Positions 11,254 through 63,953 of a DNA stretch of 64,000 bases are shown piece by piece. This stretch comes from Candidatus Omnitrophota bacterium (GTDB lineage: Bacteria > Omnitrophota > Gorgyraeia > S143-82), in NCBI GenBank assembly GCA_015494465.1, contig WGBD01000002.1, positions 3,683 to 67,682 on the forward strand, in the 5' to 3' direction. Below the pieces are notes generated by a model. That model did no database searches, had not been told where the DNA came from, and worked only from the letters and a program-made list of their open reading frames with translations. The number at the start of each line of letters is the position of its first letter. The first letter of the stretch is position 1. The translations under genes were made by a program, and so were the position numbers.

Positions 11254-11289
11254 CTCCCCCCTCCAATTTTTGGCGTTTAGGCCCTCAAC

Positions 11290-11757
11290 CTAAAACGGTG
11301 GAGACCACTTGCCACCCTTTCCCGGTTGCCACCTGACAGTGCCACCTACATAAAGGACATTGCCTCCCCTACCCCCGTGATTCTCCGGCCTATCGCAGAC
11401 TATCGGGGTAGTAGAAGGCGCCGATTCCGTAAGCCCTGAATTATACAGGTAATCCCCCTGATCTGCGTTGGTTATAGAGGTCTTTCCCGAACTGGGACAG
11501 ATGAAGACATTTATGTCGTCTATGTAGCCCTCGTCCACCAGTGCCTGAAGGTTGGGAGGGAAGTGCTCGTTGTGGTCGGCGGCGTACATGTGCAGGGCAG
11601 CGCTTATCTGTTTGAGGTTGTTGACGCACTTGGCCCGCCTGCCCTGCTCCCTCGCCCCCCGAAGGGCAGGAAAGAGCATCGCCGCCAAGAGCAGGATTAT
11701 CCCGATTACTACCAGAAGTTCTATAAGAGTAAAGCCACTTCGCCCCGAAGTGCGCAT
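11290..11757 (-). CDS. prepilin-type N-terminal cleavage/methylation domain protein (H-X9-DG/DUF1559-like pseudopilin)
   Basis: [25 protein letters not shown] prepilin motif. C-terminal H-x9-VGG...W element. Start moved to the ATG at 11757 ([15 protein letters not shown]), which is preceded by GGAGGAGGGG. The track ORF starts at 11802. Confidence 0.75.
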
Positions 11758-11809
11758 CCCCTCCTCCGGTTGGAGAATAGTATACCATAAACGCCATCTC
11801 AAAATAAGA

Positions 11810-31263: not shown

Positions 31264-31336
31264 GCCGGGATAGCTCAGGTGGTAGAGCGCAGGCCTGAAA
31301 AGCCTGGCGTCCCCAGTTCGACTCTGGGTCCCGGCA
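31264..31336 (+). tRNA. tRNA-Phe (anticodon GAA)
   Basis: GCCGGGA-TA-GCTC AGGTGGT AGAGC-G-CAGGC CTGAAAA GCCTG-GCGTC-CCCAG TTCGACT CTGGG-TCCCGGC-A, followed by a TTTTTT tract. Confidence 0.9.
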
Positions 31337-36236: not shown

Positions 36237-39200
36237 TTATTTAGTAGCAGTTATCCCCTGCGCCTGCGATGCCAACCACGAACTCAGGGCATTCATCTGT
36301 CCCAGCAATTCCTCCATGCGGGTAAACTGTCTATACAAGAACTCTCGCCGTTTGTCCAACCGGGCCTGCAGGTTCTTTATCTGATAATCGTAGACATCGA
36401 CATTTTCCTCTATGTTGTTTATCTCCCCGGCGATCAAGCCCACTTCCGGATCGGTGAGATAGGCCAGGCGATTGTTTACTCTCAGCCCCACCCCTCGGGC
36501 CTCAGTGGCCTCCAGTTCCACGATCCGGGCATAGCCGTCTTCACCCTCCAGACCGTAGAGCCGAATCTTATCCGTATAATAAGGAAGGGTGAAGAAGTGC
36601 AGGATCTCCGACTTGGTATTACCGCTCACCACCCGATAGTCGTTCCACTTGTCGTTATACCAGTACTGAAGCCTGTATCCGGTGAGCCGTTTGCCCGTCT
36701 CCGAGAGGGTGTGCACCCTAATCTTGTACAGGGAAACCCTCCGGGCGAAGTCCACCTCAAACCAGGCCCCGGTCTCGCCGTTTATCCCATTCATCCAACC
36801 GTTGGAATCAGGGCCAAACTCATCCTCTGAGGTGTTCCCGTTGATGGCCCTGGAGGGAGAATATCCCGAGGCAGTAGAAGAGGCGGAGGCGACTCCTCCG
36901 TTATCCCCCAAGGCCATGTTGACCTCGTAATTGAATAGCCTTGCAACCGCCTCTGGATCCTCCTTGAGTTTGCTCACCAACTTGGACTCGTCCAGACTAA
37001 GGTGCCCCTCGGAATCAAAGGATATACCAACCGCAGATATGTGGTTCATGTCCGAAGGCAGGCCCTCCACTGCACTGGTAACCATGGAGTACAACTCGTT
37101 CTGGAGGTTCATCAGGGCGACATTTCCCAACAGTACCCCGGCCTCTTTGGTCTCCGGGTTATACGCCATCTGCTCGGCGATGTAGTCCACGATGTCGTTA
37201 TAGGTATCTATGAACTGGTTCACCGCACTGACTACATCCTCGGTGTTCTGCTCCACCTTCACCGTCACCGGGGTGTCGCTGGTGGATATCAGGTGCAGGG
37301 TAAGGCCCTGTATCGCATTCTCCACATCGTTGGAACTGCTCACGATGGACACGCCGTTTTCACCCCCAACCAGAACCAACGCATCCACTGGATCTATCGC
37401 AGTAGAAAAGGAGAGGTCGTTAAGGGTAGAATAGGCCACCAACTGCCCCCGGGTCCCGCTGAACTTGCTGGACAATACGAGCTTATAGGGGTTCACTCCC
37501 GAGCCGTCGTTCAATACGAAGGCGTTGAACCTGTCGCTTACATCCGCGGAGTTGATGGCATTGGCCACATCGGACAGGGTGTCGTTCTCCCCTATGGTGA
37601 TGGTCCAGGAGAAGGCACCGTCGTAACCGGTGTTAGCGATACCCTCGGTCTCCTCTATGCCCAAGGACTGAGAGACAGCGTTGTCGTCTACATATATCCT
37701 GCCTTCCTGACCGGTGGTGTCCTTTATTACCAAGCCCCGACCGTCCTCTGCGACCCTTGCGGACAGGCCAATCCCTGCGGAATTAATCTTGTCCACTATG
37801 TCCGCCAAAGAACGGTCCACGGTGGTTACGCTTATCGTAGCAGTACTTCCTGACCTGTCAGTGACGGTGAATGATCCGGTGGTGATTCCCGAAAAGTCGT
37901 TGAGACTCAAGAGGATCCTATCACCAAGCCTGCCAATCAAATCCCCACCGTTCAAGGTGGCAGAGGAGACGCTCTTCGCAAGGCCCAGGTCCTCAGCAGC
38001 ACTCGATCCGTTTATACTCTCAACAGACAGACTCCCGGTCCCTCCGGTATTGTCGGTGATAACGATGTACATGCCGTCGGAGGAAAGGGAGGCGGAGACT
38101 TTGCCCCCGTTGTCCGCATCGTTGTTTATCGCCGATATCACATCTCCGATAGTAGAGACGCCGTCCAGATTCACATCTATCAGCGAACCGTCTCTGGCAG
38201 TAATCCTCAGGTCGTCCAGCCCGGCAACGGTGCCTAAGCCCTTACCGTCCGCCACTACACTTACCGCAGTAGTAGAACTAACATACAGTATCTGGTCCCC
38301 GGTAAGGACCGTCCCCGAAGCAGATACATTCAACCCCAAGGAGTTTGCCGCACCGTCCCCTTCGTTAACGGTCAATGTGCCCGTGCCACCGGCGTTATCC
38401 GTCAGTTTCAACCGCAAGCCATCGGAATCAAACTCCGCCTGAACCTGCAGGGCGGTGTTGCCGTTTATCGTCTCCAGCACATCCTGTATCGTCCGGGCGC
38501 CGGATATGTCTATGGTGGCAGAATAACCCGCGGAGTTGGTGATAACGAACCACGACCCCGAGACCCCTGAAAATCCGTTCAGGGAATCCAGCATCCTGTC
38601 GTCCACATCGCTCAAGATGGGCTTGCCAGATATGGTGGAGGAATTTATCCCCGAGGCATTGAGGATACCGAGATCCTCAGCGGTCGTGGAATCCAGATCC
38701 TCCACCTTAAAGGCACCTCCCCCACCGGATGTGTCCACGAGGTCTATTGCGTTTCCCGTGACATCTATGGTGGCGGTAACCGATATATTCGTATTGCTGT
38801 TGATTGCGGACAAGACATCCTGAATCGTCGTGGCGCTGGTCAGATCTATCGTCGCGGAATTGCCCGCCCTATCGGTTATCCTTATGTGCCCACCCGCCAC
38901 GCCAAGGCCGTCGTTTAGACGAGAGAGCAATGTGGCGGTGGTGACGTAGGCAAGATCGTCCCCGTGTTTCTGCTGTTCCTCAGAGGTGGCACCGTATATG
39001 TTCAGGTCTTTGGCCATCCTACCGCCTGCCAGATCCTCTATTCTCAACGGGCTGGTCTCCTCACCGGTGAGGTCCACGACCACTATACCGTCTCCGGTGT
39101 CGTTCACCCGGGCCAATACGGAGACACCGCTCGCGGAGTTGATAGCGGATATGACATCGCCAATCGTCTTTATGTCGCTGGAGGTCAGGTCTATGCTCAC

Positions 39201-40706
39201 GCTATTGCCTGCCCTGTCGGTTATCTTGATGCGCCCCTTTTGTACCCCCGTCCCGCCGTTTAAGGAATCCAAGCGAGTGTATTCGGAGATGAACTGAAGG
39301 TGCACATCGCTTCCCTCTATAACCCCTGAGGAACTGCTTCCCAGGATCCCCAGATCGCTGGCAGTCGTACCACCCGCCTCGCTGACCACCAGCGGGCCAG
39401 TTCCTCCGGAGGTATCGGTTATCCTTATGCCGGTGCGTGCACTGTTAATCTCTGCCTGAACGGATATCCCCGAGGCAGAGTTTATCGCCGAGAGGACATC
39501 CGAAAGGGTCTCCGCAGAACTTATGTCTATGGTAGCAACCGCTCCCGAACGATCCTGTATCACGAACCTACCCAGATCCACGCCTCGACCACCGTTGAAA
39601 CGGGAGAGGAGGACATCGTTTAGCCCGGCTATAAGAGCCCTGCCAACGACTGAAGATGTGGCATAGGTGCCAGAAAGACCGAGATCCTCGGCGGTATAAC
39701 TGGAGTTCAGACTCTCTATAGTAAGATTACCGCTTCCCCCGGTGTTATCCGTAAGCTCCAGACGATTCCCGTCAGAGGAGATCTGGACCACCACCTTGCC
39801 CGCATTGCCCGAGGCATTGTTTATCGCGGAGATCACATCTCCCACCGTCTCCGCATTGCCTATGTCCACCTCTATCACCGATCCATCCCGGGCAGTAATC
39901 CGCAAGTCTGCCCCCGAGGAGTACCTGCGCACACCGGTATTCTCGTTCAACAGCTCCAGTGCGGTGGTCTCTACTATGTCGTTTACATCGCTTCCGACGA
40001 TCTGCGTCCCGGAGGTGCTCCCCAGTATCCCCAAGGACTGCGCAGTATTCCCACCCGAGACCTCCTCTACTACCAACAGACCGGAACCACCCGAGGTATC
40101 CGTCAGGACGAGCCTGTCCCCGTCCACACTGGCGGTCACCTGCACGGTGTTATTCCTGTTTATCGCCTCCACCACATCCTCTACGGTTATGGCCCTTGAC
40201 AAATCTATCGTGGCGGAGTGCCCCGCCTTATCGGTAATCTTTATACTCCCCCTGCTAAACCCTGATTGACCGTTCAGGAAGGCCAAGGGGGTCTCCTTAT
40301 CTACATATCCACCCAATTTTATAGTAAGGGTGCCGGAACCTACCGTAGAGGAACTGTCTGCAAATCCCGAACTCATCAACTGATGGGTGCTGGCGAGTTG
40401 TTTCACGACCAGCTGATAGTTTCCGACCTGGGCATTTGCGTTGGCGGTGGCGGTCAGGACCGATTCGTTGCTGGAGGAGACATCCTTTACCCTGTAGAGG
40501 GTCGGGCGGGCCAACGCGTAAGCCTGGAGCTTAAATGTGAGCAACTTCGTCTGTATAGTGCGCCAGGCCTCTTTCTTCTTGAGTTCCAGTTCCCGTTTGG
40601 CCTGAAGCAGTTTGAGCGGATAACTCTCTAACTCTATAAGCTGATCGACTATGTTCTGGGTGTCCAGACCCGAAACTATCCCCGAAATACTGCTAGTGCC
40701 CGGCAT
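36237..40706 (-). CDS. fliD: flagellar filament cap protein FliD (hook-associated protein 2), giant 1489-aa form
   Basis: N-terminal SGLDTQNIVDQLIELESYPL (FliD_N). C-terminal ...NLQARLDKRREFLYRQFTRMEELLGQMNALSSWL (FliD_C). The central part holds ~9 tandem ~95-aa repeats with (I/L)xITDxAGxSxTIDLSxAxTxxDVxxAINSASG...LxLTDxSGGxG (flagellin IN motif). A discoidin-like segment (YSPSRAINGNTSEDEFGPDSNGWMNGINGETGAWFEVDF...YARIVELEA) is inserted before the C-terminal helix. Confidence 0.85.
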   Translation of the reverse strand: MPGTSSISGIVSGLDTQNIVDQLIELESYPLKLLQAKRELELKKKEAWRTIQTKLLTFKLQAYALARPTLYRVKDVSSSNESVLTATANANAQVGNYQLVVKQLASTHQLMSSGFADSSSTVGSGTLTIKLGGYVDKETPLAFLNGQSGFSRGSIKITDKAGHSATIDLSRAITVEDVVEAINRNNTVQVTASVDGDRLVLTDTSGGSGLLVVEEVSGGNTAQSLGILGSTSGTQIVGSDVNDIVETTALELLNENTGVRRYSSGADLRITARDGSVIEVDIGNAETVGDVISAINNASGNAGKVVVQISSDGNRLELTDNTGGSGNLTIESLNSSYTAEDLGLSGTYATSSVVGRALIAGLNDVLLSRFNGGRGVDLGRFVIQDRSGAVATIDISSAETLSDVLSAINSASGISVQAEINSARTGIRITDTSGGTGPLVVSEAGGTTASDLGILGSSSSGVIEGSDVHLQFISEYTRLDSLNGGTGVQKGRIKITDRAGNSVSIDLTSSDIKTIGDVISAINSASGVSVLARVNDTGDGIVVVDLTGEETSPLRIEDLAGGRMAKDLNIYGATSEEQQKHGDDLAYVTTATLLSRLNDGLGVAGGHIRITDRAGNSATIDLTSATTIQDVLSAINSNTNISVTATIDVTGNAIDLVDTSGGGGAFKVEDLDSTTAEDLGILNASGINSSTISGKPILSDVDDRMLDSLNGFSGVSGSWFVITNSAGYSATIDISGARTIQDVLETINGNTALQVQAEFDSDGLRLKLTDNAGGTGTLTVNEGDGAANSLGLNVSASGTVLTGDQILYVSSTTAVSVVADGKGLGTVAGLDDLRITARDGSLIDVNLDGVSTIGDVISAINNDADNGGKVSASLSSDGMYIVITDNTGGTGSLSVESINGSSAAEDLGLAKSVSSATLNGGDLIGRLGDRILLSLNDFSGITTGSFTVTDRSGSTATISVTTVDRSLADIVDKINSAGIGLSARVAEDGRGLVIKDTTGQEGRIYVDDNAVSQSLGIEETEGIANTGYDGAFSWTITIGENDTLSDVANAINSADVSDRFNAFVLNDGSGVNPYKLVLSSKFSGTRGQLVAYSTLNDLSFSTAIDPVDALVLVGGENGVSIVSSSNDVENAIQGLTLHLISTSDTPVTVKVEQNTEDVVSAVNQFIDTYNDIVDYIAEQMAYNPETKEAGVLLGNVALMNLQNELYSMVTSAVEGLPSDMNHISAVGISFDSEGHLSLDESKLVSKLKEDPEAVARLFNYEVNMALGDNGGVASASSTASGYSPSRAINGNTSEDEFGPDSNGWMNGINGETGAWFEVDFARRVSLYKIRVHTLSETGKRLTGYRLQYWYNDKWNDYRVVSGNTKSEILHFFTLPYYTDKIRLYGLEGEDGYARIVELEATEARGVGLRVNNRLAYLTDPEVGLIAGEINNIEENVDVYDYQIKNLQARLDKRREFLYRQFTRMEELLGQMNALSSWLASQAQGITATK
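37680..40260 (-). repeat. about 9 tandem in-frame coding repeats (~285 nt each) inside fliD encoding flagellin-IN motif modules
   Basis: Recurrent AINRNN/AINNASG/AINSASG/AINSASG/AINSNTN/TINGNT/AINNDAD/KINSAG/AINSAD anchors with conserved ITDRAGNS.TIDL and LTDNTGGTG blocks. The approximate span is derived from amino-acid positions 150-1010. Confidence 0.6.
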
Positions 40707-41201: not shown

Positions 41202-42602
41202 TTATCCCAACAACTGCAAGATAGCCTGAGGTGCGACGTTTGCGTGGGCAAGCATCGCAGTACCTGCCTGCATCAGTATCTGGAGCCTGGTGAACTCCAC
41301 CATCTCCTTTGCCATATCCACATCCCGGATACGGCTCTCAGAGGACTGGATGTTCTCACGGGTGACACCCAAGTTGGATATGGTGCTCTCCAAGGTGTTC
41401 TTCTGGAAGGCACCAAGGGTTGCCCTCTGAGTGGAGACGTCGTTTATCGCCTCGTCGATTATCTGCACTGCCATCGCTGCGTTGTTGGTCAGGTCGTAGG
41501 TGCCACCGGACTTGATGGCCAACAGACCCTGAGAACCAGCGGTGCTGGTGCCCAGCTGATTGGCCCTCATGGAGTTGATGGAGATGGTGGCTATCTCGTT
41601 GCTGTCCGCATTGGCACCGAGCACGAACCGGAGCAGACCAGCGGTCACATAGATGTCGTACTGAGGATGCGTACCGGTGGTATTGTAGCCCTCGTTGATG
41701 GTTATGGTCATGTTCTTGAAGGTCCCAGTCGCAGCTATGAGGGTCAGACCGCTACCGGTAGCAGATCCCCCGTGGATGGTACCCGCTATGTCCTGACCGA
41801 CATCAGCAGCTACACCCCCGCTTACCGCAGACCCGGTGACCACCAAAGAGGCCTCGGTACCGTAGGCTACCGTCTTTATAAAGATGTAATCCGTACCGGA
41901 TCCACCAGCGGAAGTCCATGCGATCACCCCACTAACAGTGGCATTTATCGCTGAGACGATCTGTCCAGCACTATAAGAACTGGCAATGTCGACCGTAACA
42001 CCGTTTATGACCAGATCACCGTATCCCCAAGCACTGGTTGCTCCCGTACCCAACGATACCAACGCCTGAGATGCCTTTTGAGTGATCTGATAGGACACAA
42101 ATCCGGTGCTCGCATAGTTACCGATGCTCGCAGCCACAACCCTATTGCTGTTCTTTATCTCCACCGAGTTACCGGCTGCACCGTTGAGGAGGTACTTACC
42201 GGCGTACTTGGTGGTGTTGGCGATCCTGTCGATGGAGTCCACCGCCGAATCCACCTGTGCCTGGTCGGCAGCAATGGCCTCGGCATCGTTAGCACCTTCG
42301 TTGGCTGCGTGAAGTGCCAATGCCCGGATGGAGTTCAACAGGGTGTTCATCTCGGTCAAGGCACCTTCCGCAGTCTGCACCATGGAGATCGCGTCCTCAG
42401 CGTTGCGGATCGCCTGGTCCAGACCGACGATGTTGGCACGCAGTTTCTCGGAAATGACCAGACCTGCCGGATCGTCCCCGGCGCGATTGATACGATAACC
42501 AGAGGAGAGTTTCTCCAGAGACTTGCGTATTGCGCTGTCCGTCTTGGTGAGGTTCCACCACGCGTTGAGCGCTGCGATGTTGTGGTTAATCCTTACTCCC
42601 AT
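41202..42602 (-). CDS. fliC: flagellin
   Basis: 466 aa. Flagellin_N (INHNIAALNAWWNLTKTDSAIRKSLEKLSSGYRINRAGDDPAGL) and Flagellin_C (...LAHANVAPQAILQLLG). The variable central domain is rich in Ser/Thr/Gly, so it is a plausible O-glycosylation target. Confidence 0.95.
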   Translation of the reverse strand: MGVRINHNIAALNAWWNLTKTDSAIRKSLEKLSSGYRINRAGDDPAGLVISEKLRANIVGLDQAIRNAEDAISMVQTAEGALTEMNTLLNSIRALALHAANEGANDAEAIAADQAQVDSAVDSIDRIANTTKYAGKYLLNGAAGNSVEIKNSNRVVAASIGNYASTGFVSYQITQKASQALVSLGTGATSAWGYGDLVINGVTVDIASSYSAGQIVSAINATVSGVIAWTSAGGSGTDYIFIKTVAYGTEASLVVTGSAVSGGVAADVGQDIAGTIHGGSATGSGLTLIAATGTFKNMTITINEGYNTTGTHPQYDIYVTAGLLRFVLGANADSNEIATISINSMRANQLGTSTAGSQGLLAIKSGGTYDLTNNAAMAVQIIDEAINDVSTQRATLGAFQKNTLESTISNLGVTRENIQSSESRIRDVDMAKEMVEFTRLQILMQAGTAMLAHANVAPQAILQLLG

Positions 42603-53398: not shown

Positions 53399-53472
53399 TG
53401 GCGGTGACTGGACTCGAACCAGTGACTCCGCGGGTATGAGCCGCGTGCTCTAACCACCTGAGCTACACCGCC
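53399..53472 (-). tRNA. tRNA with CAU anticodon (elongator Met or tRNA-Ile2/lysidine type)
   Basis: GGCGGTG-TA-GCTC AGGTGGTTA GAGC-A-CGCGG CTCATAC CCGCG-GAGTC-ACTGG TTCGAGT CCAGT-CACCGCC-A. G1-C72 is paired and there is no GGG/CCC anticodon stem, so it is not an initiator. Confidence 0.8.
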
Positions 53473-53513: not shown

Positions 53514-53545
53514 ACAAAAAAGCCGACAGGCAAACGCCTGCCGGC
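53514..53545 (-). terminator. Rho-independent terminator downstream of the PEP-CTERM protein gene
   Basis: Minus strand GCCGGCAGGC-GTTT-GCCTGTCGGC hairpin followed by TTTTTTG. Confidence 0.5.
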
Positions 53546-53569
53546 CGGGATCTCGCAACCTCAAACGCC

Positions 53570-54439
53570 TCAGGCCCTCTTGCGCCTGCGGACCACACCC
53601 AGACCGACCAGCCCGATACCAAGCAAAACCAAGGAAGAGGGCTCAGGCACCATGTCCCCGGAACCGGTGGCACCACCGTCCTTGATGGTCCAGTTCCAGG
53701 TAGAGGCGTCGTCAGGATCGCCGTCGCTGAAGTCCGGACGACTGGTGCTGTTGAAGGAGAAGGATATGTCCGCACCGTTGTGCTGGGTATTGGTGTCGAA
53801 GTACGGGGCCCAGGCACCACCTATCACATCGAACAGCATCTCCGAATACACCGCAGTTTGAGTAGCAAACCCATAATAAGTGTAGGGGGAACCGGCTATA
53901 GTTCCCATAGGTGCACCTATCAGACGGAGGACTAAGGTCCCGTTAGTGATGGGGGGGAAGGTGCGATTCCCAGTCCTATCAGTAACCGCTGGTGCAGAGG
54001 AGGGATACTGACCGTAGCCCGTAGGCGGATGCATGTAGACGTCTACGACACCGCCCCAACCGTAGTGGAACTGGATACCGCCTACCTCCTGGACCGCTAT
54101 GTGATCCAGACCGTAGAAGAAGGCAGTGAGCTCGTAATCGGCAGTCGCTGCATCGTAAAACCCGGTGATACTGGTGATCCTCAGGATGGAGTAGGCATCC
54201 TCCTTCCCGTCAGCAAAACCATCCCAGACACCGTCGTCGTATACACCAAAGACATTATCTTGGGGATTGAAGTGATAGAAGGGGTTGGTATTCAACGCAG
54301 TGCAACTGCTTCCACTGCAGTCGTACCCCCTACCCCAGTCATAAAGCCAGTCCATGTTGATGGTCACCGGAGTAGCACTGGCCCTCAGGCCGAACAGGAG
54401 CATCATCACCAACAGCGCGTACAGCCTTCCGAGTCTCAT
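53570..54439 (-). CDS. PEP-CTERM sorting-domain secreted protein
   Basis: 289 aa. Signal peptide. C-terminal ...VPEPSSLVLLGIGLVGLGVVRRRKRA (PEP motif, TM helix, Arg cluster). Y/W/G/D-rich body. Confidence 0.75.
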   Translation of the reverse strand: MRLGRLYALLVMMLLFGLRASATPVTINMDWLYDWGRGYDCSGSSCTALNTNPFYHFNPQDNVFGVYDDGVWDGFADGKEDAYSILRITSITGFYDAATADYELTAFFYGLDHIAVQEVGGIQFHYGWGGVVDVYMHPPTGYGQYPSSAPAVTDRTGNRTFPPITNGTLVLRLIGAPMGTIAGSPYTYYGFATQTAVYSEMLFDVIGGAWAPYFDTNTQHNGADISFSFNSTSRPDFSDGDPDDASTWNWTIKDGGATGSGDMVPEPSSLVLLGIGLVGLGVVRRRKRA

Positions 54440-54627: not shown

Positions 54628-54650
54628 CCCCCTCAGCGCGAATGAGGGGA
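54628..54650 (-). terminator. hairpin (7-bp stem CCCCTCA/TGAGGGG) at the gspH-like stop codon, weak terminator candidate
   Basis: A perfect inverted repeat overlaps the stop codon. The U-tract is displaced (GUGUCAACUUUUUU), so efficiency is uncertain. Confidence 0.3.
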
Positions 54651-55102
54651 GACAACGCTGATCTTTCCCGACAAAGAAGAGGCACAGACATCCTTTTGCT
54701 TCCCCAAGTCGTTCCACAGGTGCACGCAGGTCCGTTCCTTGGCCTCTCCGGTGTGGAGGAACTCCACTGGCTGGTCTAAGCGGGCCGAGACACCGCTGGG
54801 CAGGCAAAACTCCTCGCCGACGGGATTCCACTTGCCATTCTGTCGAATCGCTATCCTTAGACAATCCCCTTCTAACCACACCCTGGACTGGGTGCGATCC
54901 AACTGGGCCAGGGATCGGGCCCGGCCGAGGACCTCTATAACCCCCCGCAAGGCAGACTTCAACCTCGCCCGCTGGCTGGCCCCTCTAAAAAAAGGGACCG
55001 CCACTCCCAACATAAGCGAGATTATCACCAGAACGACCAGGACCTCTATAAGGGTGAAGGCCCTCTTACCAGTTGGTGATGTCGTCAGCCACGCCACCGT
55101 CG
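54633..55102 (-). CDS. type II secretion/type IV pilus minor pseudopilin (GspH/FimT-like)
   Basis: KRAFTLIEVLVVLVIISLMLGVAVP prepilin N-terminus. Start set to the ATG at 55102 (MEKTT...). The track ORF starts further upstream and overlaps gspG more. Confidence 0.7.
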
Positions 55103-55497
55103 TCTTTTCCATTGGGACCAAAGGAATACAGGTCAAACTTATACTTGCGATGCACACCCGGATAGCGGTACTGATAGGGATTGCCCCACGGATCCAGAAA
55201 CCGCCCCTCCTGGTCTAACTGGTCTTCCTTGAGCTCCAGATAGGGCCCGTACCAGTTGGGATCGTCGGAATCGGTGAGGGCGGAGACGACTGCCTTTATG
55301 TCCCCCTTGGGATAGCTGCCCATGTCCTGCTGGTACTGCTCCAGCGCGGACTCCAAGGCAGCGATCTCCGCCTTTGCCCGGGATATGCTCGCCCGCCTGC
55401 GCGCGGTCTGATTGGCGGTCATTATAAATCCCGCCAGTATCCCGATAATCGCGATTACCACCAATAGCTCTATAAGGGTAAAACCGCCTCGCCTCAT
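55066..55497 (-). CDS. gspG: type II secretion system major pseudopilin GspG
   Basis: 143 aa. [23 protein letters not shown]..., DPWGNPYQY is the GspG hallmark. Confidence 0.9.
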   Translation of the reverse strand: MRRGGFTLIELLVVIAIIGILAGFIMTANQTARRRASISRAKAEIAALESALEQYQQDMGSYPKGDIKAVVSALTDSDDPNWYGPYLELKEDQLDQEGRFLDPWGNPYQYRYPGVHRKYKFDLYSFGPNGKDDGGVADDITNW

Positions 55498-58183: not shown

Positions 58184-58803
58184 AGGAAAGGATTCGTTCT
58201 CCTCTCTTCACCTATGGTGGTGCTCTCACCGTGCCCTGGACATACCCGTATCTCATCCGGCAGTTCTAACAACCTCACCAGGGAAGTTTGAAGAGATTCG
58301 TAATCGCTCCCCGGCAGATCCGTGCGCCCTACACTTCCTCTAAAAAGTGTGTCGCCAGAGAAGAGGATTCCCTCTACCGCGAGACAAACGCTACCCTTAG
58401 TATGACCTGGCGTGTGCAGGACGGTAACCTCTATAGGCCCAATACTTACCCTGCCCTCTTTCAACGGAAAACTCATGGGAGGAGACGTTACCTCCATACC
58501 AAACATAGTAGAGAGGTTGAGCTCCGGATCGAGCAACATGTCCGCATCGTAGGGGTGGATGTAAATCGGAGCGGAGAAAAGCCGGTTTCCCGAGATGTGA
58601 TCGAAGTGACCATGCGTGTTCAGGACTGCCACTACCGACAGTCCAAGCTCCTCCACCAGATCCAGCACATCCCTGCTGGCGGGATCTATCACTAGGCATT
58701 CCTCTCCCGAGATGACCAGGTAAGAGTTGGTCTCCAGCGGGCCGTTTATCAGTGTCTCTACCTTAATCATATCTACAGTTATTCCACCACTAACCTCTCC
58801 CAC
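58171..58803 (-). CDS. MBL-fold hydrolase (hydroxyacylglutathione hydrolase-like)
   Basis: 210 aa. VLNTHGHFDHISGN. Confidence 0.75.
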   Translation of the reverse strand: MGEVSGGITVDMIKVETLINGPLETNSYLVISGEECLVIDPASRDVLDLVEELGLSVVAVLNTHGHFDHISGNRLFSAPIYIHPYDADMLLDPELNLSTMFGMEVTSPPMSFPLKEGRVSIGPIEVTVLHTPGHTKGSVCLAVEGILFSGDTLFRGSVGRTDLPGSDYESLQTSLVRLLELPDEIRVCPGHGESTTIGEERRTNPFLCEI

Positions 58804-59279
58804 AGCTCTGGAGGCTGTTTGCTAGGCAAAAATCGATTGTGGAACCTACGCCTTATCTCGTCCACCTTCTTTTTGGCCCTGGTAATCGGGAGGTTGGCCT
58901 CCTTTAACTTCAAGACCTCCTTGTATATGGCCCTTAACTGGTTAGCGTACCGCTCGATCTCTTTCTTCTCTTCTTCGTAGTCTGAAGGCAGATAATCCGC
59001 AAGGATCTCTAGGTTATACACCGCCTGCTCCATGCTCTTTTTGAGACGCTTTCGACTGTCCGAGTCCATCGCAGACTTGAACTCGTCCATCCACACCTTC
59101 GCAAACACGAAGTGGCGCTCGTAAACCACCTTGGGGTCGACGCTGTATTCCTCAGATGGGGCTCGCACCGTGGTCTTTTCCTTCTTGGGCTCCCTCACGA
59201 ACTTCTTGGCCAGGGAGCCACAGCCCGCCAACAAGAGCCCTGCCAAAACGACGAGAGCAATTTGCCTTAACATCGTCAT
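58779..59279 (-). CDS. lipoprotein, hypothetical
   Basis: 166 aa. Lipobox LLLAGC. Lys/Glu-rich. Translationally coupled (4-nt overlap) to the upstream GspE ATPase gene. Confidence 0.55.
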   Translation of the reverse strand: MTMLRQIALVVLAGLLLAGCGSLAKKFVREPKKEKTTVRAPSEEYSVDPKVVYERHFVFAKVWMDEFKSAMDSDSRKRLKKSMEQAVYNLEILADYLPSDYEEEKKEIERYANQLRAIYKEVLKLKEANLPITRAKKKVDEIRRRFHNRFLPSKQPPELWERLVVE

Positions 59280-60961
59280 TCCTCTGCGGTTACTCTTAAG
59301 ACCTCCTCAAAAGTGGTAATCCCCTGGAGAAAGAGTTCAAAGGTATTTTGCCTCAATGTGCGCATCCCACAGTGTTTGACTGCAAACTCCTTTATCTGAT
59401 CCGATGTGGCACCGTCCAAGACCATCTGTCTGATCTCATCGTTCATAGTCAGCGTCTCTATGGTGGCTATCCTCCCAAGATATCCGGTCTTCCTGCACTT
59501 CTCACAGCCCTTTCCCCTATAGAATATCACCCCTTCGGGATATTCAAAACCCTCTTTCTCAAATACCTCTCTAGGTATGTCCACCGGCTCCTTACAATGA
59601 GGGCATATCCTTCGGCAGAGACGCTGGGCAGAAGTCAATACCAAAGAAGAGGCGACCAAGAACGGTTCCACCCCCATGTCCACGAGCCTGGTAATCGCCC
59701 CTGCTGCGTCGTTGGTGTGGAGGGTGCTCAAGACCAAGTGCCCAGTCAAGGAAGCCTTGACCGCTATGTCCGCGGTTTCGGAGTCTCGTATCTCTCCCAC
59801 CAAGACGATGTCAGGGCTTTGTCTCAGTATCGCCCTCAACGCCGAGGCAAAGGTTAGACCTATGTCGTGATTGACCTGAATCTGGGTCAACCCCTCCACC
59901 TGATACTCAACCGGATCCTCTACGGTGATTATGTGCACCTCCGGTCGGTTTAGCTCCTGCAACACCGAATACAGCGTAGTAGACTTACCGCTACCAGTAG
60001 GTCCGGTAACCAATATGAGTCCGTAAGGATGCTTTATCGCCCGCTTAAACTCCTCTAGAGGCTGGGGTAAAAACCCTAACTTATCCAATCCTACTTGGAG
60101 GTTGCTCTTGTCCAAGACCCTCAAGACGAACTTCTCCCCAAAGACCGTTGGGAGGGACGAGACGCGGAAGTCTATCAACTTATCTTTGTGGCGCATCCTA
60201 AATCTGCCGTCTTGAGGCACGCGCCACTCAGTGATGTCCATACCCGACATTATCTTAAGCCTGGTCAAGATAGCGGGTTGGCGGTTCTTAGGGAGGGTGA
60301 AGAACTCGTGTAGGGCACCGTCTATCCTATAACGCAGGCGTATACAGTCCTCCATGGGCTCTATGTGGATGTCGCTAGCGCGTTGGTTTAATCCCTCCTT
60401 TATGACCAAGTTGACCATCCTCACTATCGGGGCCTGCTCGCTCTCGTCCACCACCGTTGAAGAGGCCATAAGCTCGTCGACATTGTCCATCAGGGCTTCT
60501 ATATCCTCGTCTAAGAAGTCCTCATCTCTAGAAGCGGTCCTCAGACTGGATAGAAACTCCTCGATGTCTGGTGGAAAGGCCAAGACCGGCACGATCTCGT
60601 AACCAGTTATCGCCGAGATCTCATCTTTTACCAAGACATCTAGCACATCCATCATCACCAAAGACATCGTATCCCCTAGGGACCCTAGAGGAATAACTTT
60701 TTTCTCCCACATAAGGTTAAAAGGAATGAGATCTGAACGAATGTTCTCCACCTTCAACTTAGTGATGTCTATCCAAGGAATCTGGAGCTCGTCGGATATC
60801 GTCTCCATGAGAGTGATCTTCTGGAGTGGTGTCTTCTCTACGATAACCGTAAACAGATCCTTATCCGATTCGAAACTCCGTATCTCGTTGACCAGATTCG
60901 AGCCAAACCGCCTCTCCAGTATCTCCAATACCCGTCTATCTATAAACTTTTGCCTAGCCAT
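59276..60961 (-). CDS. gspE: GspE/PilB-family secretion ATPase (type II secretion / type IV pilus assembly)
   Basis: 561 aa. N-terminal T2SSE_N domain, Walker A VTGPTGSGKSTTLYS, Asp/His boxes, C-terminal CxxC...CxxC zinc motif. Confidence 0.9.
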   Translation of the reverse strand: MARQKFIDRRVLEILERRFGSNLVNEIRSFESDKDLFTVIVEKTPLQKITLMETISDELQIPWIDITKLKVENIRSDLIPFNLMWEKKVIPLGSLGDTMSLVMMDVLDVLVKDEISAITGYEIVPVLAFPPDIEEFLSSLRTASRDEDFLDEDIEALMDNVDELMASSTVVDESEQAPIVRMVNLVIKEGLNQRASDIHIEPMEDCIRLRYRIDGALHEFFTLPKNRQPAILTRLKIMSGMDITEWRVPQDGRFRMRHKDKLIDFRVSSLPTVFGEKFVLRVLDKSNLQVGLDKLGFLPQPLEEFKRAIKHPYGLILVTGPTGSGKSTTLYSVLQELNRPEVHIITVEDPVEYQVEGLTQIQVNHDIGLTFASALRAILRQSPDIVLVGEIRDSETADIAVKASLTGHLVLSTLHTNDAAGAITRLVDMGVEPFLVASSLVLTSAQRLCRRICPHCKEPVDIPREVFEKEGFEYPEGVIFYRGKGCEKCRKTGYLGRIATIETLTMNDEIRQMVLDGATSDQIKEFAVKHCGMRTLRQNTFELFLQGITTFEEVLRVTAEE

Positions 60962-60965
60962 AACA

Positions 60966-62675
60966 TCACTTAGCGGTTACCCTGAAGACCTCTTCCAGAC
61001 TGGTTATACCTTCGGCTGCCTTCTTTATCGCATCCTCCCGCATCGTCCTCATACCTTCCGCAACAGCAGCCTCACGGATCTCCGGTTCCTCTGCGCCCTT
61101 GGCGATCAACTCTCTTATCTTCGGGGTGAGGATCATGATCTCCGCAACGTTGGTTCTACCCTTGTAACCTATCTGGAGGCACTTGTTACATCCCTTTGGT
61201 CGATAAAATGTCGTTCCCACATACTCTTTGTTAATCCTCAGCCTCTCAGCCATCTCTTCGGTGAGAGTATAAGGCTCCTTACAGTTCTCACAGAGCTTCC
61301 TCAACAACCTCTGTCCCATAATCCCTATCACCGAGGCGGTTATCAAGAAAGGCTCAACCCCCATGTTCACCATCCTCACTACGGCACCGGGAGCGGTGTT
61401 AGTATGTAGAGTGGTCAATACGAGGTGCCCGGTCAAGGCAGCCTTTATGGCTATGTCCATCGTCTCGTGATCGCGGATCTCACCTATCAGGATTATGTCC
61501 GGATCCTGCCTTAGTATGGACCTCAAGGCGGATGCAAATGTCAATCCCACCTCGTGGTTTACTTGTACCTGGTTGATGCCTCTCAATTGATACTCTACCG
61601 GATCCTCGACGGTGATTATGTTCTTCTCTGGAGCATCGATGTAGCGCAGTACTGAGTAGAGTGTAGTCGACTTACCACTTCCCGTGGGACCGGTTACTAT
61701 AAACATCCCGTGAGGTCTTCTCACCGCCCGCTTTATCTTTTCCAGGGTATCGGGATAGAACCCAAGGTTGTCCAGATCCAGCATCACCGCACCCTTGTCC
61801 AATATGCGCAAACAGGCCTTTTCCCCAAAGGCCGACGGTACTATAGAGATCCTGAAGTCCACGATCCTGCCACCGATCTTCATGCGGAACTTGCCATCTT
61901 GAGGAAGGCGGTGTTCGGATATGTCCATCCTTCCCAAGACCTTGATACGAGATATTATCGCCTCGTGCAAGTACCTAGGGGGAGATTCCACCTCCTGAAG
62001 GATCCCGTCGACCCTATACCTTACCCGCATGTGCTTCTCGAACGGCTCTATGAATATGTCACTGGCCTTCAGCTTCACTCCGGTCTCCACGATCTTGTTC
62101 ACCGCCCGCACCGCGGGCGCCATCTGCAGTTCTACATTCTCAACGCCTTCCTCTTCCTCTTTTTTCTCTGGAACCAGCTCTATATCCTCCTCACCGAAGT
62201 CCTCCAACAGTCCCTGGAGTGCCTCGGCGCTGTTCTCGTCCTCTTCCTCTCCCAGTTTCCCAATCAATTCTTTAACCTCTTCTTCAGAGGTAAGACACAC
62301 CGCCACCTGCTTACCAGTGCGCAGTCGCACATCGTCCACTGCTATGTAATTCCAAGGATCCACCATGGCTAGGGTAAGGACATCCTTCACCAAGGATATT
62401 GGGACCACGCGGTAGCGTTTGATCACATCTATAGGTATAAGTTCCAATATCTCGCTGGAGAGCTTGAGCCTAGAGAGCTTGAAGAAGGGCACCCCAAGTC
62501 CCTTCGCCAAGACCATGGTGAGCATCTCTTTTTCGACGATGTTCAGCTGGATTATCGCATCAAAAAAGTCTATGTTCTTCTCCCTAGCGTACCCGACTAT
62601 CTTCGGGATGTCTGCACGGGAGATAATCTCCTCTTTTATGAGGATGTTAACCAGTTCCTCCTTAAGCCAGGCCAT
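60966..62675 (-). CDS. GspE/PilB-family secretion ATPase, second tandem paralogue
   Basis: 569 aa. T2SSE_N + VTGPTGSGKSTTLYS + CENCKEP...GCNKC tetracysteine. An acidic linker separates the domains. Confidence 0.9.
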   Translation of the reverse strand: MAWLKEELVNILIKEEIISRADIPKIVGYAREKNIDFFDAIIQLNIVEKEMLTMVLAKGLGVPFFKLSRLKLSSEILELIPIDVIKRYRVVPISLVKDVLTLAMVDPWNYIAVDDVRLRTGKQVAVCLTSEEEVKELIGKLGEEEDENSAEALQGLLEDFGEEDIELVPEKKEEEEGVENVELQMAPAVRAVNKIVETGVKLKASDIFIEPFEKHMRVRYRVDGILQEVESPPRYLHEAIISRIKVLGRMDISEHRLPQDGKFRMKIGGRIVDFRISIVPSAFGEKACLRILDKGAVMLDLDNLGFYPDTLEKIKRAVRRPHGMFIVTGPTGSGKSTTLYSVLRYIDAPEKNIITVEDPVEYQLRGINQVQVNHEVGLTFASALRSILRQDPDIILIGEIRDHETMDIAIKAALTGHLVLTTLHTNTAPGAVVRMVNMGVEPFLITASVIGIMGQRLLRKLCENCKEPYTLTEEMAERLRINKEYVGTTFYRPKGCNKCLQIGYKGRTNVAEIMILTPKIRELIAKGAEEPEIREAAVAEGMRTMREDAIKKAAEGITSLEEVFRVTAK

Positions 62676-63117
62676 AGCTCTCCTTATACCTGTTCAGGAC
62701 TTCCTTTATCTCGCTTGGTGTGGCGATGAAACTCACCACATCCAAACCCGCCTCTTCCTTTATGTAGCCGGCTATGGAATCGTCCAAAGGATTAGCAGCG
62801 GAAATGGTCACTACCGATCCTATTAGGTAGACAGGGACGAACTCCCGGCTTTCCATCTCAAACACTGGAAAGCGCATGAACAATTCGAAATCTAGTTCGT
62901 AATCATCTAAGGGAAGATAAGGGATCTCGTACTGGGACATCAAGGCGAACATTATGTCCCGCTCGGTTGCGTAACCCTTGCGGATGAGCAATTCCCCTGT
63001 CAGCCCGCCCTCTTTCTCCCTGAGCTCGAGCACCTCGCGAAGTTGCTCTGGAGAAACGACTCCCTTCTCGATAAGGATCTTGCCTAGTGGCTTGTGGACG
63101 ATTCGCTTGTAGAACAT
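62662..63117 (-). CDS. standalone GspE N-terminal (T2SSE_N / MshEN-like) domain protein
   Basis: 151 aa. Homologous to the N-domains of the two downstream ATPases (...LIEKGVVSPEQLREVLELREKEG...). No ATPase core. Confidence 0.7.
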   Translation of the reverse strand: MFYKRIVHKPLGKILIEKGVVSPEQLREVLELREKEGGLTGELLIRKGYATERDIMFALMSQYEIPYLPLDDYELDFELFMRFPVFEMESREFVPVYLIGSVVTISAANPLDDSIAGYIKEEAGLDVVSFIATPSEIKEVLNRYKESYGLA

Positions 63118-63953
63118 CAGTCCACCTTTATCTCCGTCCCGACGCCCTTTTTGGTGAATATCTCTAACAATAGCGCGTGTTTGTGCTTTGCGTTCACCAC
63201 GTGGACCTTCTTTACCCCCCTCTCGAGTGCGGATAGACCTGCCTCCACCTTAGGTAGCATCCCCCCGCTAATCACGCCGGTGGAGACGAAACGCCTTATC
63301 CTATTGGCGTCAACCGAAGACAACAACCTGTCTTTATACATTATACCGTCCACATTGGTCAAAAACACCAATTTCTCAACTCCCAAGGCCACCGATATCT
63401 CCGCAGCAGACAGATCCGCATTCACATTGTAGAGCTTCCCCTTGCGATCTACCCCAAAAGGGGCTATTACTGGGATGATCCCTTTGGACAGGAGGGAGAA
63501 TATCGGATTGGCATTTATCCCGATTATCTCCCCGACGTATCCCAATTCCTCCGACCTCTGCCTGGCCTTTATTACCGCATCCTTATCTATGAGACCGAGG
63601 GCAGGGCACCTCAACTCCCTAAGTTCCCTTACGATCTGGGCATTTATCTTCTTCAGCTCCCGCACTACCACCTTTAAGACCCTGGAATTCGTCTTCCGGA
63701 GCCCGTTTACGAACTCCGGGACGATCCCTTTTGCCCTCAAGGCCTTATTTATGCTCGGTCCTCCACCATGGACCAAGACCGGCCTAATGCCCACATAGTG
63801 CATAAACACGATGTCCTGAAGCACGGACCTGCGGATCGAGGCATCCTCCAAGGAGCTCCCACCGTACTTTATCACGAAGACCTTCCCGTGAAAGGCCTGT
63901 ATGTAAGGTAAGGCCTCCAACAAGACCTTGGCCTTATCTACCGCGGTCTTCAT
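63117..63953 (-). CDS. argB: acetylglutamate kinase
   Basis: 278 aa. VIKYGGSSL...VLVHGGGPSINKAL. Confidence 0.95.
   Translation of the reverse strand: MKTAVDKAKVLLEALPYIQAFHGKVFVIKYGGSSLEDASIRRSVLQDIVFMHYVGIRPVLVHGGGPSINKALRAKGIVPEFVNGLRKTNSRVLKVVVRELKKINAQIVRELRELRCPALGLIDKDAVIKARQRSEELGYVGEIIGINANPIFSLLSKGIIPVIAPFGVDRKGKLYNVNADLSAAEISVALGVEKLVFLTNVDGIMYKDRLLSSVDANRIRRFVSTGVISGGMLPKVEAGLSALERGVKKVHVVNAKHKHALLLEIFTKKGVGTEIKVD

Follow-up and report, generated by a model that had tools for sequence, protein, structure and literature searches.

In Vibrio cholerae MshE, the sensor for c-di-GMP forms the N-terminus of the ATPase, and in Thermus thermophilus PilF three GSPII/MshEN domains lie in cis on one polypeptide with one ATPase. 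GSPII-A of PilF does not bind the ligand; position 1 is occupied by K and L in GSPII-B, whose c-di-GMP binding is at 6 nM, and by P in GSPII-C, which binds at about 460 nM. [quoted passage not shown] Acinetobacter baylyi, in the outline given by a review, serves one type IV pilus (T4P) with two phylogenetically distinct assembly-type ATPases, PilB and TfpB; the review's account mentions no free MshEN partner for them. Tandem GspE-family ATPases, followed by one GspF and PilT, are also encoded on plasmid CP114559 of Ca. Manganitrophus (Nitrospirota). There the first ATPase starts with MRLGEILIDKG..., with the RLG motif and Gly3 in cis, and no free MshEN gene is found nearby. A neighbour-joining tree pairs the two copies as closest relatives, which suggests an independent, more recent duplication.

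The Omnitrophota locus described here differs from PilF in that each of its three MshEN-fold domains belongs to a protein of its own, and two of these proteins are ATPases. It lies in a 64,000-nucleotide stretch of DNA (the window) and comprises the gene of a free-standing MshEN protein, S, followed by those of two PilB/GspE-class ATPases, A1 and A2 (Table 1). An ORF check of the window placed argB, S, A1, A2 and a lipoprotein gene on the minus strand in tight packing, with overlaps of 1 nt (argB/S), 14 nt (S/A1) and 4 nt (A2/lipoprotein) and a gap of 4 nt between A1 and A2. The initial annotation had reported the N-domain protein, both ATPases with a tetracysteine motif in each, a lipoprotein coupled to the second ATPase gene and a distant DUF1559 prepilin, all of which were found as described; its spacings of 1-5 nt hold for every junction except S/A1. 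The gspG and gspH genes, which it had put about 4 kb away, lie 3.8 kb downstream. None of the window ORFs read or scanned encoded GspF, a secretin, PilMNO or a prepilin peptidase, and the only strong terminator-like site on the minus strand is at 53546..53521.

Table 1 Features of the S-A1-A2 locus and related genes in the window
Feature	Coordinates	Strand	Details
argB	63117..63953	-	AA_kinase, E = 6.6e-46
S, free-standing full-length MshEN-domain protein	62662..63117	-	151 aa; candidate c-di-GMP receptor
Bipartite 24+5+24 c-di-GMP-type motif of S	62932..63090	-	residues 10-62; PLGKILIEKGVVSPEQLREVLELR, spacer EKEGG, LTGELLIRKGYATERDIMFALMSQ
A1, PilB/GspE-class ATPase	60966..62675	-	569 aa; degenerate N1 (MshEN-fold), ATPase core, tetracysteine site
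Walker A of A1	61668..61691	-	GPTGSGKS, residues 329-336
Tetracysteine zinc motif of A1	61179..61292	-	C462xxC465...C496xxC499; all Cys 100% in orthologues
A2, second PilB/GspE-class ATPase	59276..60961	-	561 aa; N1 more degenerate than that of A1
Walker A of A2	59981..60004	-	GPTGSGKS, residues 320-327; 98-100% conserved in 62 orthologues
Tetracysteine zinc motif of A2	59495..59605	-	C453xxC456...C486xxC489; all Cys 100% in orthologues
Lipoprotein	58779..59279	-	lipobox LLAGC; 164-166 aa; clade-specific, A2-coupled
GspG-type major pseudopilin	55066..55497	-	143 aa; TIGR01710 97.6 bits (cut-off 88.85); T2SSG + N_methyl
GspH-like minor pseudopilin	54633..55157	-	N_methyl; TIGR01708 43.8 bits, under cut-off
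DUF1559-type prepilin	11290..11802	-	PF07596 + N_methyl

Pfam matched S to MshEN alone (E = 1.7e-10), and A1 and A2 to both T2SSE (E = 1e-141 and 2e-133) and MshEN (E = 3e-17 and 7.5e-11). These matches are far beyond chance and bear out the fold that had been proposed to be common to the three proteins. The 48 homologues of S have a length of 145-168 aa, those that are named being from Omnitrophota. In the PDB, the best sequence match of S is Thermus thermophilus PilF, and the best Foldseek match of its AF2 model (pLDDT 92.2) is MshE with c-di-GMP (5HTL, TM 0.74-0.79), with which it shares the two-subdomain fold. The model also matched c-di-GMP-bound PilF GSPII-B (TM 0.66-0.72) and, strongly, the Xanthomonas PilB-N/PilZ complex 7LKM (TM 0.75), and gave weak matches to the EpsE-N1/EpsL and GspE/GspL complexes (2BH1, 4PHT). 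Like MshE, S has the 24+5+24 geometry, L2, Gly3, the hydrophobic ladder and Q24 of motif II. The key positions of the motif were matched at 19 of 20, with Gly3 in both halves; T at position 2 of motif II and R instead of Q at position 24 of motif I deviate. The former position is Leu39 in MshE, where it belongs to the guanine-stacking cluster. Unlike MshE, S lacks both position-1 arginines and has P in motif I and L in motif II, the very position-1 substitutions seen in GSPII-C and GSPII-B of PilF; since these two domains bind without Arg there, its absence does not disqualify S. Across the S family, Gly3 is kept in 83/83 (motif I) and 81/83 (motif II) sequences, the five-residue spacer in 81/82 and Q24 of motif II in 82/83. 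We thus predict, from motif and model, a role for S as a sensor of c-di-GMP.

When the c-di-GMP motifs were checked in the three N-domains, as the initial annotation had proposed, only S proved to be intact. It was the one N-domain of the window to pass the NCBIfam c-di-GMP motif model NF053729 (50 bits, cut-off 38) and the only one with Gly3 in both half-sites. The A1 orthologues have T, K or I at Gly3 of motif I and G at Gly3 of motif II in only 3/71 cases; in those of A2, Gly3 is missing from both motifs (62/62). The substitutions G11V and G40L are among the changes that abolish binding in XpsE (Wang et al., 2016). It is mainly Gly3 and Gly10 that separate the intact S from the degenerate ATPases, because the c-di-GMP-motif HMM also matches other Omnitrophota N-domains at E<=1e-3 (A1, 66/70; A2, 52/62). 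As in PilF, only some of the MshEN-fold domains would then be ligand-competent. MshE carries its sensor on the ATPase itself, but in Omnitrophota the sensor would be a separate polypeptide.

A1 and A2 share with canonical GspE (T2SS) and PilB (T4aP) the N1 domain, the core of the ATPase and the zinc site, but both proteins form clades of their own and, for all their high scores on the two models, remain below both equivalog cut-offs: A1 reached 630.6 for TIGR02538 (cut-off 675.65) and 614.4 for TIGR02533 (cut-off 630.25), and A2 597.6 and 569.9. The TfpB model gave 454 bits against a cut-off of 850, and A1 and A2 are therefore not orthologues of TfpB. The top PDB sequence match of both is Geobacter PilB (A1, 502 bits; A2, 488 bits). 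In the ATPase core A1 and A2 are 54% identical to each other and 52-53% identical to Geobacter PilB, so that neither is nearer to its partner than to this PilB. In a neighbour-joining tree with few PilB/GspE references the orthologues of A1 and of A2 were separately monophyletic (bootstrap 94% and 98%), while the deeper nodes were weak (A2+PilB, 61%; A1+A2, 10%). The sequences thus identify A1 and A2 as two old, anciently diverged paralogue clades. Walker A, the Asp box, Walker B (GE.RD), the His box and the four cysteines are kept in both. In the Walker A of 71 A1 orthologues G, P, G, G and K are found in 100% and T and S in 97-98%, with S as the last residue in only 2%. Judged by these motifs, both A1 and A2 look catalytically competent.

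Of 63 loci from Omnitrophota species that offered sufficient sequence, 60 had the order S-A1-A2; the median gaps are 11 nt between S and A1 and 7 nt between A1 and A2. In every one of the listed loci with both ATPases called, the first was closest to A1 of the window and the second to A2, and in 41/43 loci a GspF/PilC gene came next after the trio, followed by pilins. S-A1-A2 is therefore a module conserved across this uncultivated phylum that normally heads an ordinary pilus-type operon, and the tandem, phylum-wide occurrence of its ATPase genes sets it apart from PilB and TfpB of A. baylyi. In the clade of the window, GspF and most pilins are not adjacent to the trio. The initial annotation had noted that no platform gene is adjacent; this does not point to an unusual system, as most relatives have the trio directly before GspF/PilC and pilins, and the isolation is a clade-specific break-up of the operon. 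Its description of the arrangement as non-canonical stands, with a free N-domain and two full assembly-type ATPases. With respect to an assignment of both ATPases to a single well-defined system, relatives do encode the other components in a standard operon, but the ATPases belong to two distinct clades and reach no equivalog cut-off. S, A1 and A2 stay contiguous after the break-up, down to 67% identity and with overlaps or gaps of a few nt. The gene upstream of them varies, being a signal-peptidase-family gene plus DUF5679 in the clade relative L092 and Maf in L093. argB, previously included in the operon, is thus a chance neighbour outside the module, its linkage not being kept in relatives.

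GGDEF-like and HD-GYP genes share the cluster of the module in other Omnitrophota. In 40/74 loci the gene immediately preceding S, or PilT-S, is HAMP-GAF-GGDEF-like. All 40 copies are degenerate (GDNEF/GDDEF, no RxxD) and do not indicate that c-di-GMP is made locally. In 18 loci A2 is followed by a REC-HD-GYP gene whose GYP is intact, and 17 of these loci have it between A2 and GspF. A search of the window yielded neither GGDEF nor HD-GYP nor a c-di-GMP riboswitch; in the clade relatives, canonical GGEEF cyclases lie 3-5 kb upstream (L092) and a GGDEF-domain gene 0.6 kb upstream (L093).

We favour, with moderate confidence, a reading in which the trio drives a type IV filament machine: two ATPases would supply the motor, and c-di-GMP would be sensed in trans by a detached protein. 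S, A1 and A2 would be the cytoplasmic motor module of an Omnitrophota T4P/T2SS-like machine. A1 and A2 most likely work on one platform, since most genomes have a single GspF/PilC beside them, and may form a mixed oligomer or be two motors that divide labour like PilB and TfpB of A. baylyi. The N-domains of the ATPases have lost the glycines that close the motif onto the guanine, and the intact bipartite motif is found in S, with its gene immediately upstream of, and translationally coupled to, those of the motors. On binding c-di-GMP, S may dock on the motor or the platform and so license or tune filament assembly, a control of the MshE/PilF type but supplied in trans. In the clade of the window this module has become separated from GspF and most of the pilins, and the lipoprotein gene now comes next. 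That the system might be gated by c-di-GMP had been suggested before; this is reasonable because, of the three N-domains in the window, S alone passes NF053729 and keeps both Gly3 residues, the role itself being a predicted one.

S might instead be a c-di-GMP-independent mimic of N1, competing with the N1 domains of the two ATPases, or bridging them, at the docking site of the platform or of GspL/PilM-like alignment proteins, and would then be a motor inhibitor or an adaptor for assembly and not a nucleotide sensor. In ATPases of the GspE type, N1 serves for docking to other proteins, the fold matches to 7LKM, 2BH1 and 4PHT are all to docking complexes, and four positions in S of the window do not conform to the strict motif. 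For the A. baylyi T4P, the primary paper is said to describe a motor-inhibitor protein as well. Two extension motors control this pilus according to the review's outline. However, L2, both Gly3, the spacer and Q24 of motif II are near-invariant over about 80 species, but vary without such constraint in the paralogous N-domains of A1 and A2. As this near-invariance hits exactly the ligand-contacting positions, a pure protein-protein role is insufficient, and the HD-GYP and GGDEF-like genes within the cluster of other lineages also speak against it; we consider such a mimic unlikely.

Another division of functions would make A1 and A2 opposite or sequential motors, one for extension and one for retraction, or one for the priming of assembly, rather than a joint motor, with S regulating the switch. 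A PilT-like gene adjoins in only 11/82 loci, so that many lineages may be without a dedicated retraction motor nearby, and replacement of the first His-box histidine by Gln (TGQ) in 57/62 A2 orthologues suggests altered kinetics, although A2 of the window keeps TGH. PilB and TfpB of A. baylyi have likewise been proposed, in the review's outline, to split priming and processivity. Yet both A1 and A2 have PilB as the nearest solved structure and carry the N1 domain and tetracysteine site, which are assembly-type features. PilT-type retraction motors are not known to have either feature. PilT-like genes do occur in the phylum, and absence beside S is not absence from the genome; we hold opposite or sequential roles to be quite improbable. 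Still less credence is given to the trio as a relic of a broken operon, whose adjacency would mean nothing for function in this genome and whose ATPases would serve two different machines encoded elsewhere, e.g. a GspG-based T2SS and a T4P. The separation from GspF and most pilins would fit, as would the presence of both a T2SS-type GspG and separate DUF1559 prepilins in the window and the weak joining of A2 to PilB references, with A1 nearer to those of GspE. But the contiguity of the trio has survived the break-up, one GspF is common to both ATPases across the phylum, and neither the bootstrap of just 61% nor the scores below the equivalog cut-offs argue for two assigned machines.

Finally, the lipoprotein next to the module occurs only in the clade of the window (L001, L092, L093, P0049 and P0050). 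An alternative ATG two codons downstream has a better Shine-Dalgarno spacing and yields the 164 aa of the database gene call P0049. The AF2 model of the lipoprotein (pLDDT 81.8) showed a disordered tether and then a four-helix bundle, for which a fold search gave no specific match (best E = 0.06). The position of gspG is the same in L001 and L092. The GspH-like ORF is listed at its longest; it is called with 150-151 aa in both loci, and the true start is probably downstream, just before the prepilin motif KRAFTLIEVLV. The DUF1559-type prepilin, though unlinked, is a possible substrate.

Open reading frame calls and Pfam searches bore out the initial annotation in its description of an MshEN-only protein (S) and two full T2SSE/MshEN ATPases (A1 and A2), each with a CxxC...CxxC motif. 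On the minus strand, the frames from argB to the lipoprotein gene follow one another with no real gaps between them. The spacings of 1 to 5 nt that had been claimed for this stretch were found at argB/S (1-nt overlap), A1/A2 (4-nt spacer) and A2/lipoprotein (4-nt overlap), but S and A1 overlap by 14 nt. That S and A1 are parts of one gene, split or frameshifted, was ruled out, as this 14-nt overlap and the separate frames recur in three other loci of the window's clade (L001, L092 and L093) and S forms a frame of its own, of about 150 aa, in about 80 species. An alternative lipoprotein start two codons later has a better Shine-Dalgarno spacing and coincides with the start of the database gene call P0049.

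Coordinates of the features discussed (L018, L021 and L064, other related loci; L091, plasmid CP114559)
Feature	Location	Coordinates	Strand	Basis or remark
argB	window	63953..63117	-	ORF call
S, MshEN only, 151 aa	window	63117..62662	-	Pfam
ATPase A1, 569 aa	window	62675..60966	-	Pfam T2SSE + MshEN
ATPase A2, 561 aa	window	60961..59276	-	Pfam T2SSE + MshEN
A2 residue 408	window	~59738-59740		first His-box histidine
Lipoprotein	window	59279..58779	-	ORF call
MBL-fold hydrolase, xerD, folD, methylenetetrahydrofolate reductase gene	window		-	in this order after the lipoprotein gene
gspG	window	55497..55066	-	above its model cut-off
gspH-like gene	window	55157..54633	-	pseudopilin
PEP-CTERM protein gene	window	53521-54439 region	-	ORF call; directly after gspG and gspH
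Terminator-like hairpin	window	53546..53521	-	11 pairs
tRNA	window	53399-53472		
Flagellin gene	window	41202-42602		
Giant FliD flagellar cap protein, 1,489 aa	window	36237-40706	-	adjoins the flagellin gene
Low-GC region	window	29996-35814	-	GC 0.435-0.464 vs ~0.54 elsewhere
DUF1559 prepilin gene and dCache-HAMP methyl-accepting chemotaxis protein gene	window	9313-11802	-	prepilin gene immediately upstream, same strand
HAMP-GAF-GGDEF gene	L018	6556-7998		directly upstream of S
HAMP-GAF-GGDEF gene	L064	5407-6825		directly upstream of S
REC-HD-GYP response-regulator phosphodiesterase gene	L018	11895-12956		after A2
REC-HD-GYP response-regulator phosphodiesterase gene	L021	11880-12950		after A2
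Two tandem GspE-family ATPases, then GspF and PilT	L091	3995-9495		

The reported lack of a platform gene beside the three genes was confirmed for the whole window. GspF/PilC was recognised neither there nor within 10 kb upstream in L001, and reading or scanning the window's ORFs revealed no secretin, PilMNO/GspCLM or prepilin peptidase. Prepilin-type substrates are represented by GspG, which scored above its cut-off, the GspH-like pseudopilin and a DUF1559 prepilin, and the remainder of the window consists of housekeeping genes and a flagellar and flagellin-glycosylation block. Promoter and terminator scans of the window gave counts no higher than in shuffled sequences. The sole strong terminator-like hairpin on the minus strand lies after the PEP-CTERM gene; a tRNA follows, and this gene order is kept in L001 and L092.

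Gene context identical to that of the window was found in L001 and L002 (93%-identical relative). In L001, L092 and L093 the genes for S, A1, A2, the lipoprotein, the MBL hydrolase and XerD are kept together down to 67% identity, and in L001 and L092 they are followed by folD, the reductase gene, gspG, gspH and the PEP-CTERM gene. The gene upstream of S differs among these loci, being argB in the window and L001, a signal-peptidase-family gene and DUF5679 in L092, and Maf in L093. The proposed operon linkage with argB was therefore abandoned and argB is regarded as a chance neighbour. Homologues of the lipoprotein occur in this clade only, and the protein belongs to no Pfam or NCBIfam family; its AF2 model is a tethered four-helix bundle with generic structural matches (best E 0.06).

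Homologues of S numbered 48, all of 145–168 aa, and every named one comes from Candidatus Omnitrophota. In distant members of the phylum (about 40% identity), the gene for an S protein of 149 aa is followed in turn by those for ATPases of 588 and 569 aa, GspF, a protein of about 300 aa, pilins and a DUF4900 protein. Scanning a single genome for each GTDB species yielded at least 466 loci. Among the best 80 of these, from which the labels were taken, 53 were labelled Omnitrophota or Omnitrophica, one Ca. Aceula (an Omnitrophota genus), two were unclassified, one was Ca. Elulimicrobium, and the remaining 23 bore third-party MAG labels of "uncultured Planctomycetales/Planctomycetia". The Ca. Elulimicrobium locus (L063, DYOU01000025.1) shows the full order S, A1, A2, S2 and GspF, S2 being a second free MshEN protein in the slot between A2 and GspF; NCBI places the genus in the Patescibacteria group, so either the module reaches beyond Omnitrophota or the label reflects a difference in taxonomy.

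After ORF calling, loci were scored with the window's proteins and gene order was counted where at least 3.6 kb lay downstream. Among the matches listed, the order S, A1, A2 was found in 60 of 63 such loci and GspF directly after A2 in 41 of the 43 with room for it, with median gaps of 11 nt (S to A1) and 7 nt (A1 to A2). In every listed locus where both ATPases were called, the first best matched A1 of the window and the second A2. Because the order, the presence of GspF and the positions of A1 and A2 are this constant, the trio constitutes a module conserved across the phylum. Most members have it at the head of a type IV filament operon of otherwise ordinary make-up; in the window's clade GspF and most pilins are displaced from it. 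In the literature on type IV pili or PilB of Omnitrophota/Omnitrophica and on stand-alone MshEN, we found no description of the S-A1-A2 combination or of its phylum-wide conservation.

Both ATPases gave strong Pfam matches to T2SSE (PF00437; E 1e-141 for A1, 2e-133 for A2) and to the N-terminal MshEN domain (PF05157; 3.1e-17 and 7.5e-11). The closest solved structure for either is the T4aP protein PilB of Geobacter (502 and 488 bits), with GspE and PilF close behind. Neither reached a family cut-off: A1 and A2 scored 630.6 and 597.6 bits with the PilB model TIGR02538 (cut-off 675.65), 614.4 and 569.9 bits with the GspE model TIGR02533 (630.25), and 453.7 and 453.6 bits with NF053534, the model of the second extension ATPase TfpB (850). 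The cysteines of the C-terminal zinc-binding CxxC...CxxC motif, a feature of assembly-type ATPases, are all 100% conserved in 71 A1 and 62 A2 orthologues, and Walker A, the Asp box, the GE.RD of Walker B and the His box are conserved in both clades. Both proteins are thus predicted to be live ATPases; neither looks dead. The first His-box histidine of A2 is replaced by glutamine (TGQ) in 57 of 62 orthologues; TGH is kept in the window's clade and is invariable in A1. The substitution may be a sign that the second ATPase is kinetically specialised.

A neighbour-joining tree of the ATPase core (378 columns) was built from 30 A1, 30 A2, five local PilT-like outgroups and references. PilB and Vibrio vulnificus GspE were transcribed from PDB alignments, in the case of PilB because the plasmid collection holds mostly GspE; further GspE and HofB came from annotated plasmids. 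A1 and A2 were each monophyletic (bootstrap 94% and 98%), with the window's genes inside both clades. A sister relation of A1 and A2 received 10%, and a grouping of A2 with PilB 61%. Core identity between A1 and A2 is 54%, no closer than that of either to Geobacter PilB (52–53%). Given this identity and the separate clades, the duplication is, as read from these sequences, ancient and no younger than the sampled phylum. The phylogeny suggested earlier as a check thus resolved two clades and assigned the pair to no single known system. On the plasmid of Ca. Manganitrophus (Nitrospirota), tandem GspE-family ATPases likewise precede one GspF, but there each copy has the other as its nearest relative, a sign of independent duplication. 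Upstream of that pair are genes for two very large proteins of prepilin type, of about 400 and 500 aa.

The best PDB sequence matches of S were the GSPII domains of Thermus PilF, the N-termini of Geobacter and Myxococcus PilB, and V. cholerae MshEN. An AF2 model from 28 sequences (pLDDT 92.2) showed the two-subdomain MshEN fold, with a four-helix N-subdomain and an alpha/beta C-subdomain. Its top Foldseek match was 5HTL, MshE with c-di-GMP (E 5.9e-09, TM 0.74–0.79), followed by PilF GSPII domains including c-di-GMP-bound GSPII-B and then by the Xanthomonas PilB-N/PilZ complex. The c-di-GMP receptor motif consists of two 24-residue copies of RLGxx(L/V/I)(L/V/I)xxG(L/V/I)(L/V/I)xxxxLxxxLxxQ joined by five residues. 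The guanine is bound by the backbone NH groups of the glycine at position 3 (Gly3) and the residue after it, with leucines stacked on the base, and the ribose-phosphate is bound by Gln24; Arg at position 1 corresponds to Arg9 and Arg38 of MshE. In the non-binding XpsE, G11V and G40L are named among the responsible changes (Wang et al.).

S of the window carries PLGKILIEKGVVSPEQLREVLELR (residues 10–33), EKEGG and LTGELLIRKGYATERDIMFALMSQ (residues 39–62), in agreement with the motif at 19 of 20 key positions and correctly spaced. Gly3 is present in motif I of 83/83 and in motif II of 81/83 S proteins, position 2 of motif I is L or I in all 83, Gln24 of motif II is found in 82 of 83, that of the window included, and the five-residue spacer in 81 of 82 orthologues. 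Arg was not found at position 1 of S, which is Q, P, H or K in motif I and L in motif II (78/83); the window has P and L. This is not disqualifying, since PilF GSPII-B, with K and L at this position, binds c-di-GMP at 6 nM and GSPII-C, with P, at about 460 nM. Weaker points in the window's clade are T at position 2 of motif II (Leu39 in MshE) and R instead of Q at position 24 of motif I, which only the relaxed motif of Wang et al. allows. The strict and relaxed regular expressions of these authors were dropped as a criterion; proven binders match them once only, which makes them too stringent.

Alignment with hhalign showed clear homology between the S family and the N-domains of A1 (E 1.8e-43) and A2 (E 1.5e-40). 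With the c-di-GMP motif model NF053729 (cut-off 38 bits), S of the window scored 50 bits and its A1 and A2 gave no match. In other Omnitrophota, 66 of 70 A1 and 52 of 62 A2 N-domains match this model at E<=1e-3; it does not discriminate S from the ATPase N-domains phylum-wide and was dropped for this purpose. Residue-level criteria were therefore used, and it is the glycine positions that set S apart from the ATPases. At position 3, A1 has T, K or I in motif I and mostly S in motif II, with G in 3 of 71 orthologues; A2 has I or L in motif I and R, D or E in motif II, with Gly in neither motif in any of 62. Checking the motifs in all three N-domains, as had been proposed, thus showed Gly3 kept in both motifs of S and largely or wholly lost from A1 and A2, whose N-domains may yet retain residual c-di-GMP binding.

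Neither GGDEF nor HD-GYP genes nor c-di-GMP riboswitches were found in the 64-kb window, where the Rfam scan returned three tRNAs only. Within the window's clade, L092 has two canonical GGEEF cyclases 3–5 kb upstream of S, and L093 a GGDEF-domain gene 0.6 kb upstream that does not contain the canonical GG[DE]EF motif. Across the phylum, among the matches listed, a gene for a HAMP-GAF-GGDEF protein of about 475 aa lies upstream in 40 of the 74 loci with upstream room, directly before S in 33 and before a PilT-like gene preceding S in 7. In none of the 40 is its GG[DE]EF site intact, degenerate forms such as GDNEF and GDDEF taking its place, and the RxxD I-site is missing; the protein is probably a sensor or scaffold, not a cyclase. 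A REC-HD-GYP gene (PF13487) with intact GYP follows A2 in 18 of the listed loci, 17 of which have it between A2 and GspF, and in 11 others this slot holds S2, with both glycines. Searching a metagenome library with the S profile gave 35,342 cluster representatives at E<=1e-3, with arrays of 2–7 MshEN domains and many proteins of about 150 aa among the top matches. Since stand-alone and multi-copy MshEN are common in metagenomes, a free MshEN protein is not new in itself. Close relatives of S such as P0171-P0184 have 2–7 tandem MshEN domains in 300–1,345 aa, and some of them, such as one of 464 aa with three copies, apparently lack an ATPase domain.

The best-supported interpretation is a type IV filament motor module in which two anciently diverged, apparently active assembly-type ATPases stand beside a single platform gene. 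The N1 domains of both ATPases have lost the ligand-contacting glycines, and the predicted ligand site is kept by a detached full-length MshEN protein that is putatively translationally coupled to A1. S would bind c-di-GMP and then act in trans on the motor or the platform, and A1 and A2 would cooperate on one machine; the nearest precedent for such cooperation is PilB plus TfpB of A. baylyi. S could instead be a ligand-independent N1 mimic or inhibitor; A1 and A2 could divide extension from retraction, or priming from processive action, or they could serve two unrelated machines. The conservation pattern lowers the weight of all three alternatives, which we consider less probable than the motor module. 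We advance more tentatively, as possible rather than probable, a specific form of this module: the c-di-GMP-sensing MshEN protein would be a diffusible, ligand-dependent "clutch" on a filament machine with two ancient ATPases, possibly a mixed hexamer, to which some lineages add a second MshEN or an HD-GYP before GspF. If true, this would be the first case found of MshEN-type in-trans control of a type IV filament motor and also an extension motor with two obligate ATPases throughout a phylum. Control of PilB by c-di-GMP and the occurrence of several PilB paralogues are already known.

Little is understood so far of how c-di-GMP acts through the N-terminal domain to control type IV pilus and type II secretion motors. 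The sensor is fused to the ATPase in the systems known to us that have been studied, and binding and motor effects are therefore hard to separate. A natural separate sensor of about 150 aa would open both to simple biochemistry, and the main value of the module lies in this naturally split system for MshEN-type control and in the material that it offers on two-ATPase motors. Why some pilus systems need two extension ATPases is likewise an open question, on which the tandem, old and near-universal pair allows comparison on a large scale. The Omnitrophota are nanobacteria that are abundant and for the most part uncultivated. Surface filaments are regarded as central to their host-dependent or predatory way of life, which makes filament regulation ecologically relevant.

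Elsewhere in the window, the DUF1559 prepilin gene shares its strand with the chemotaxis protein gene that it immediately precedes. Between FliD_N and FliD_C the giant FliD contains numerous inserted domains of repeated type, and an F5/8 type C (discoidin) domain is located close to its C-terminal end. In the low-GC region beside the flagellar genes lie genes for glycosyltransferases and an MptE-like protein (PF01973). The region is probably an island for the glycosylation of flagellin, perhaps one gained by horizontal transfer.
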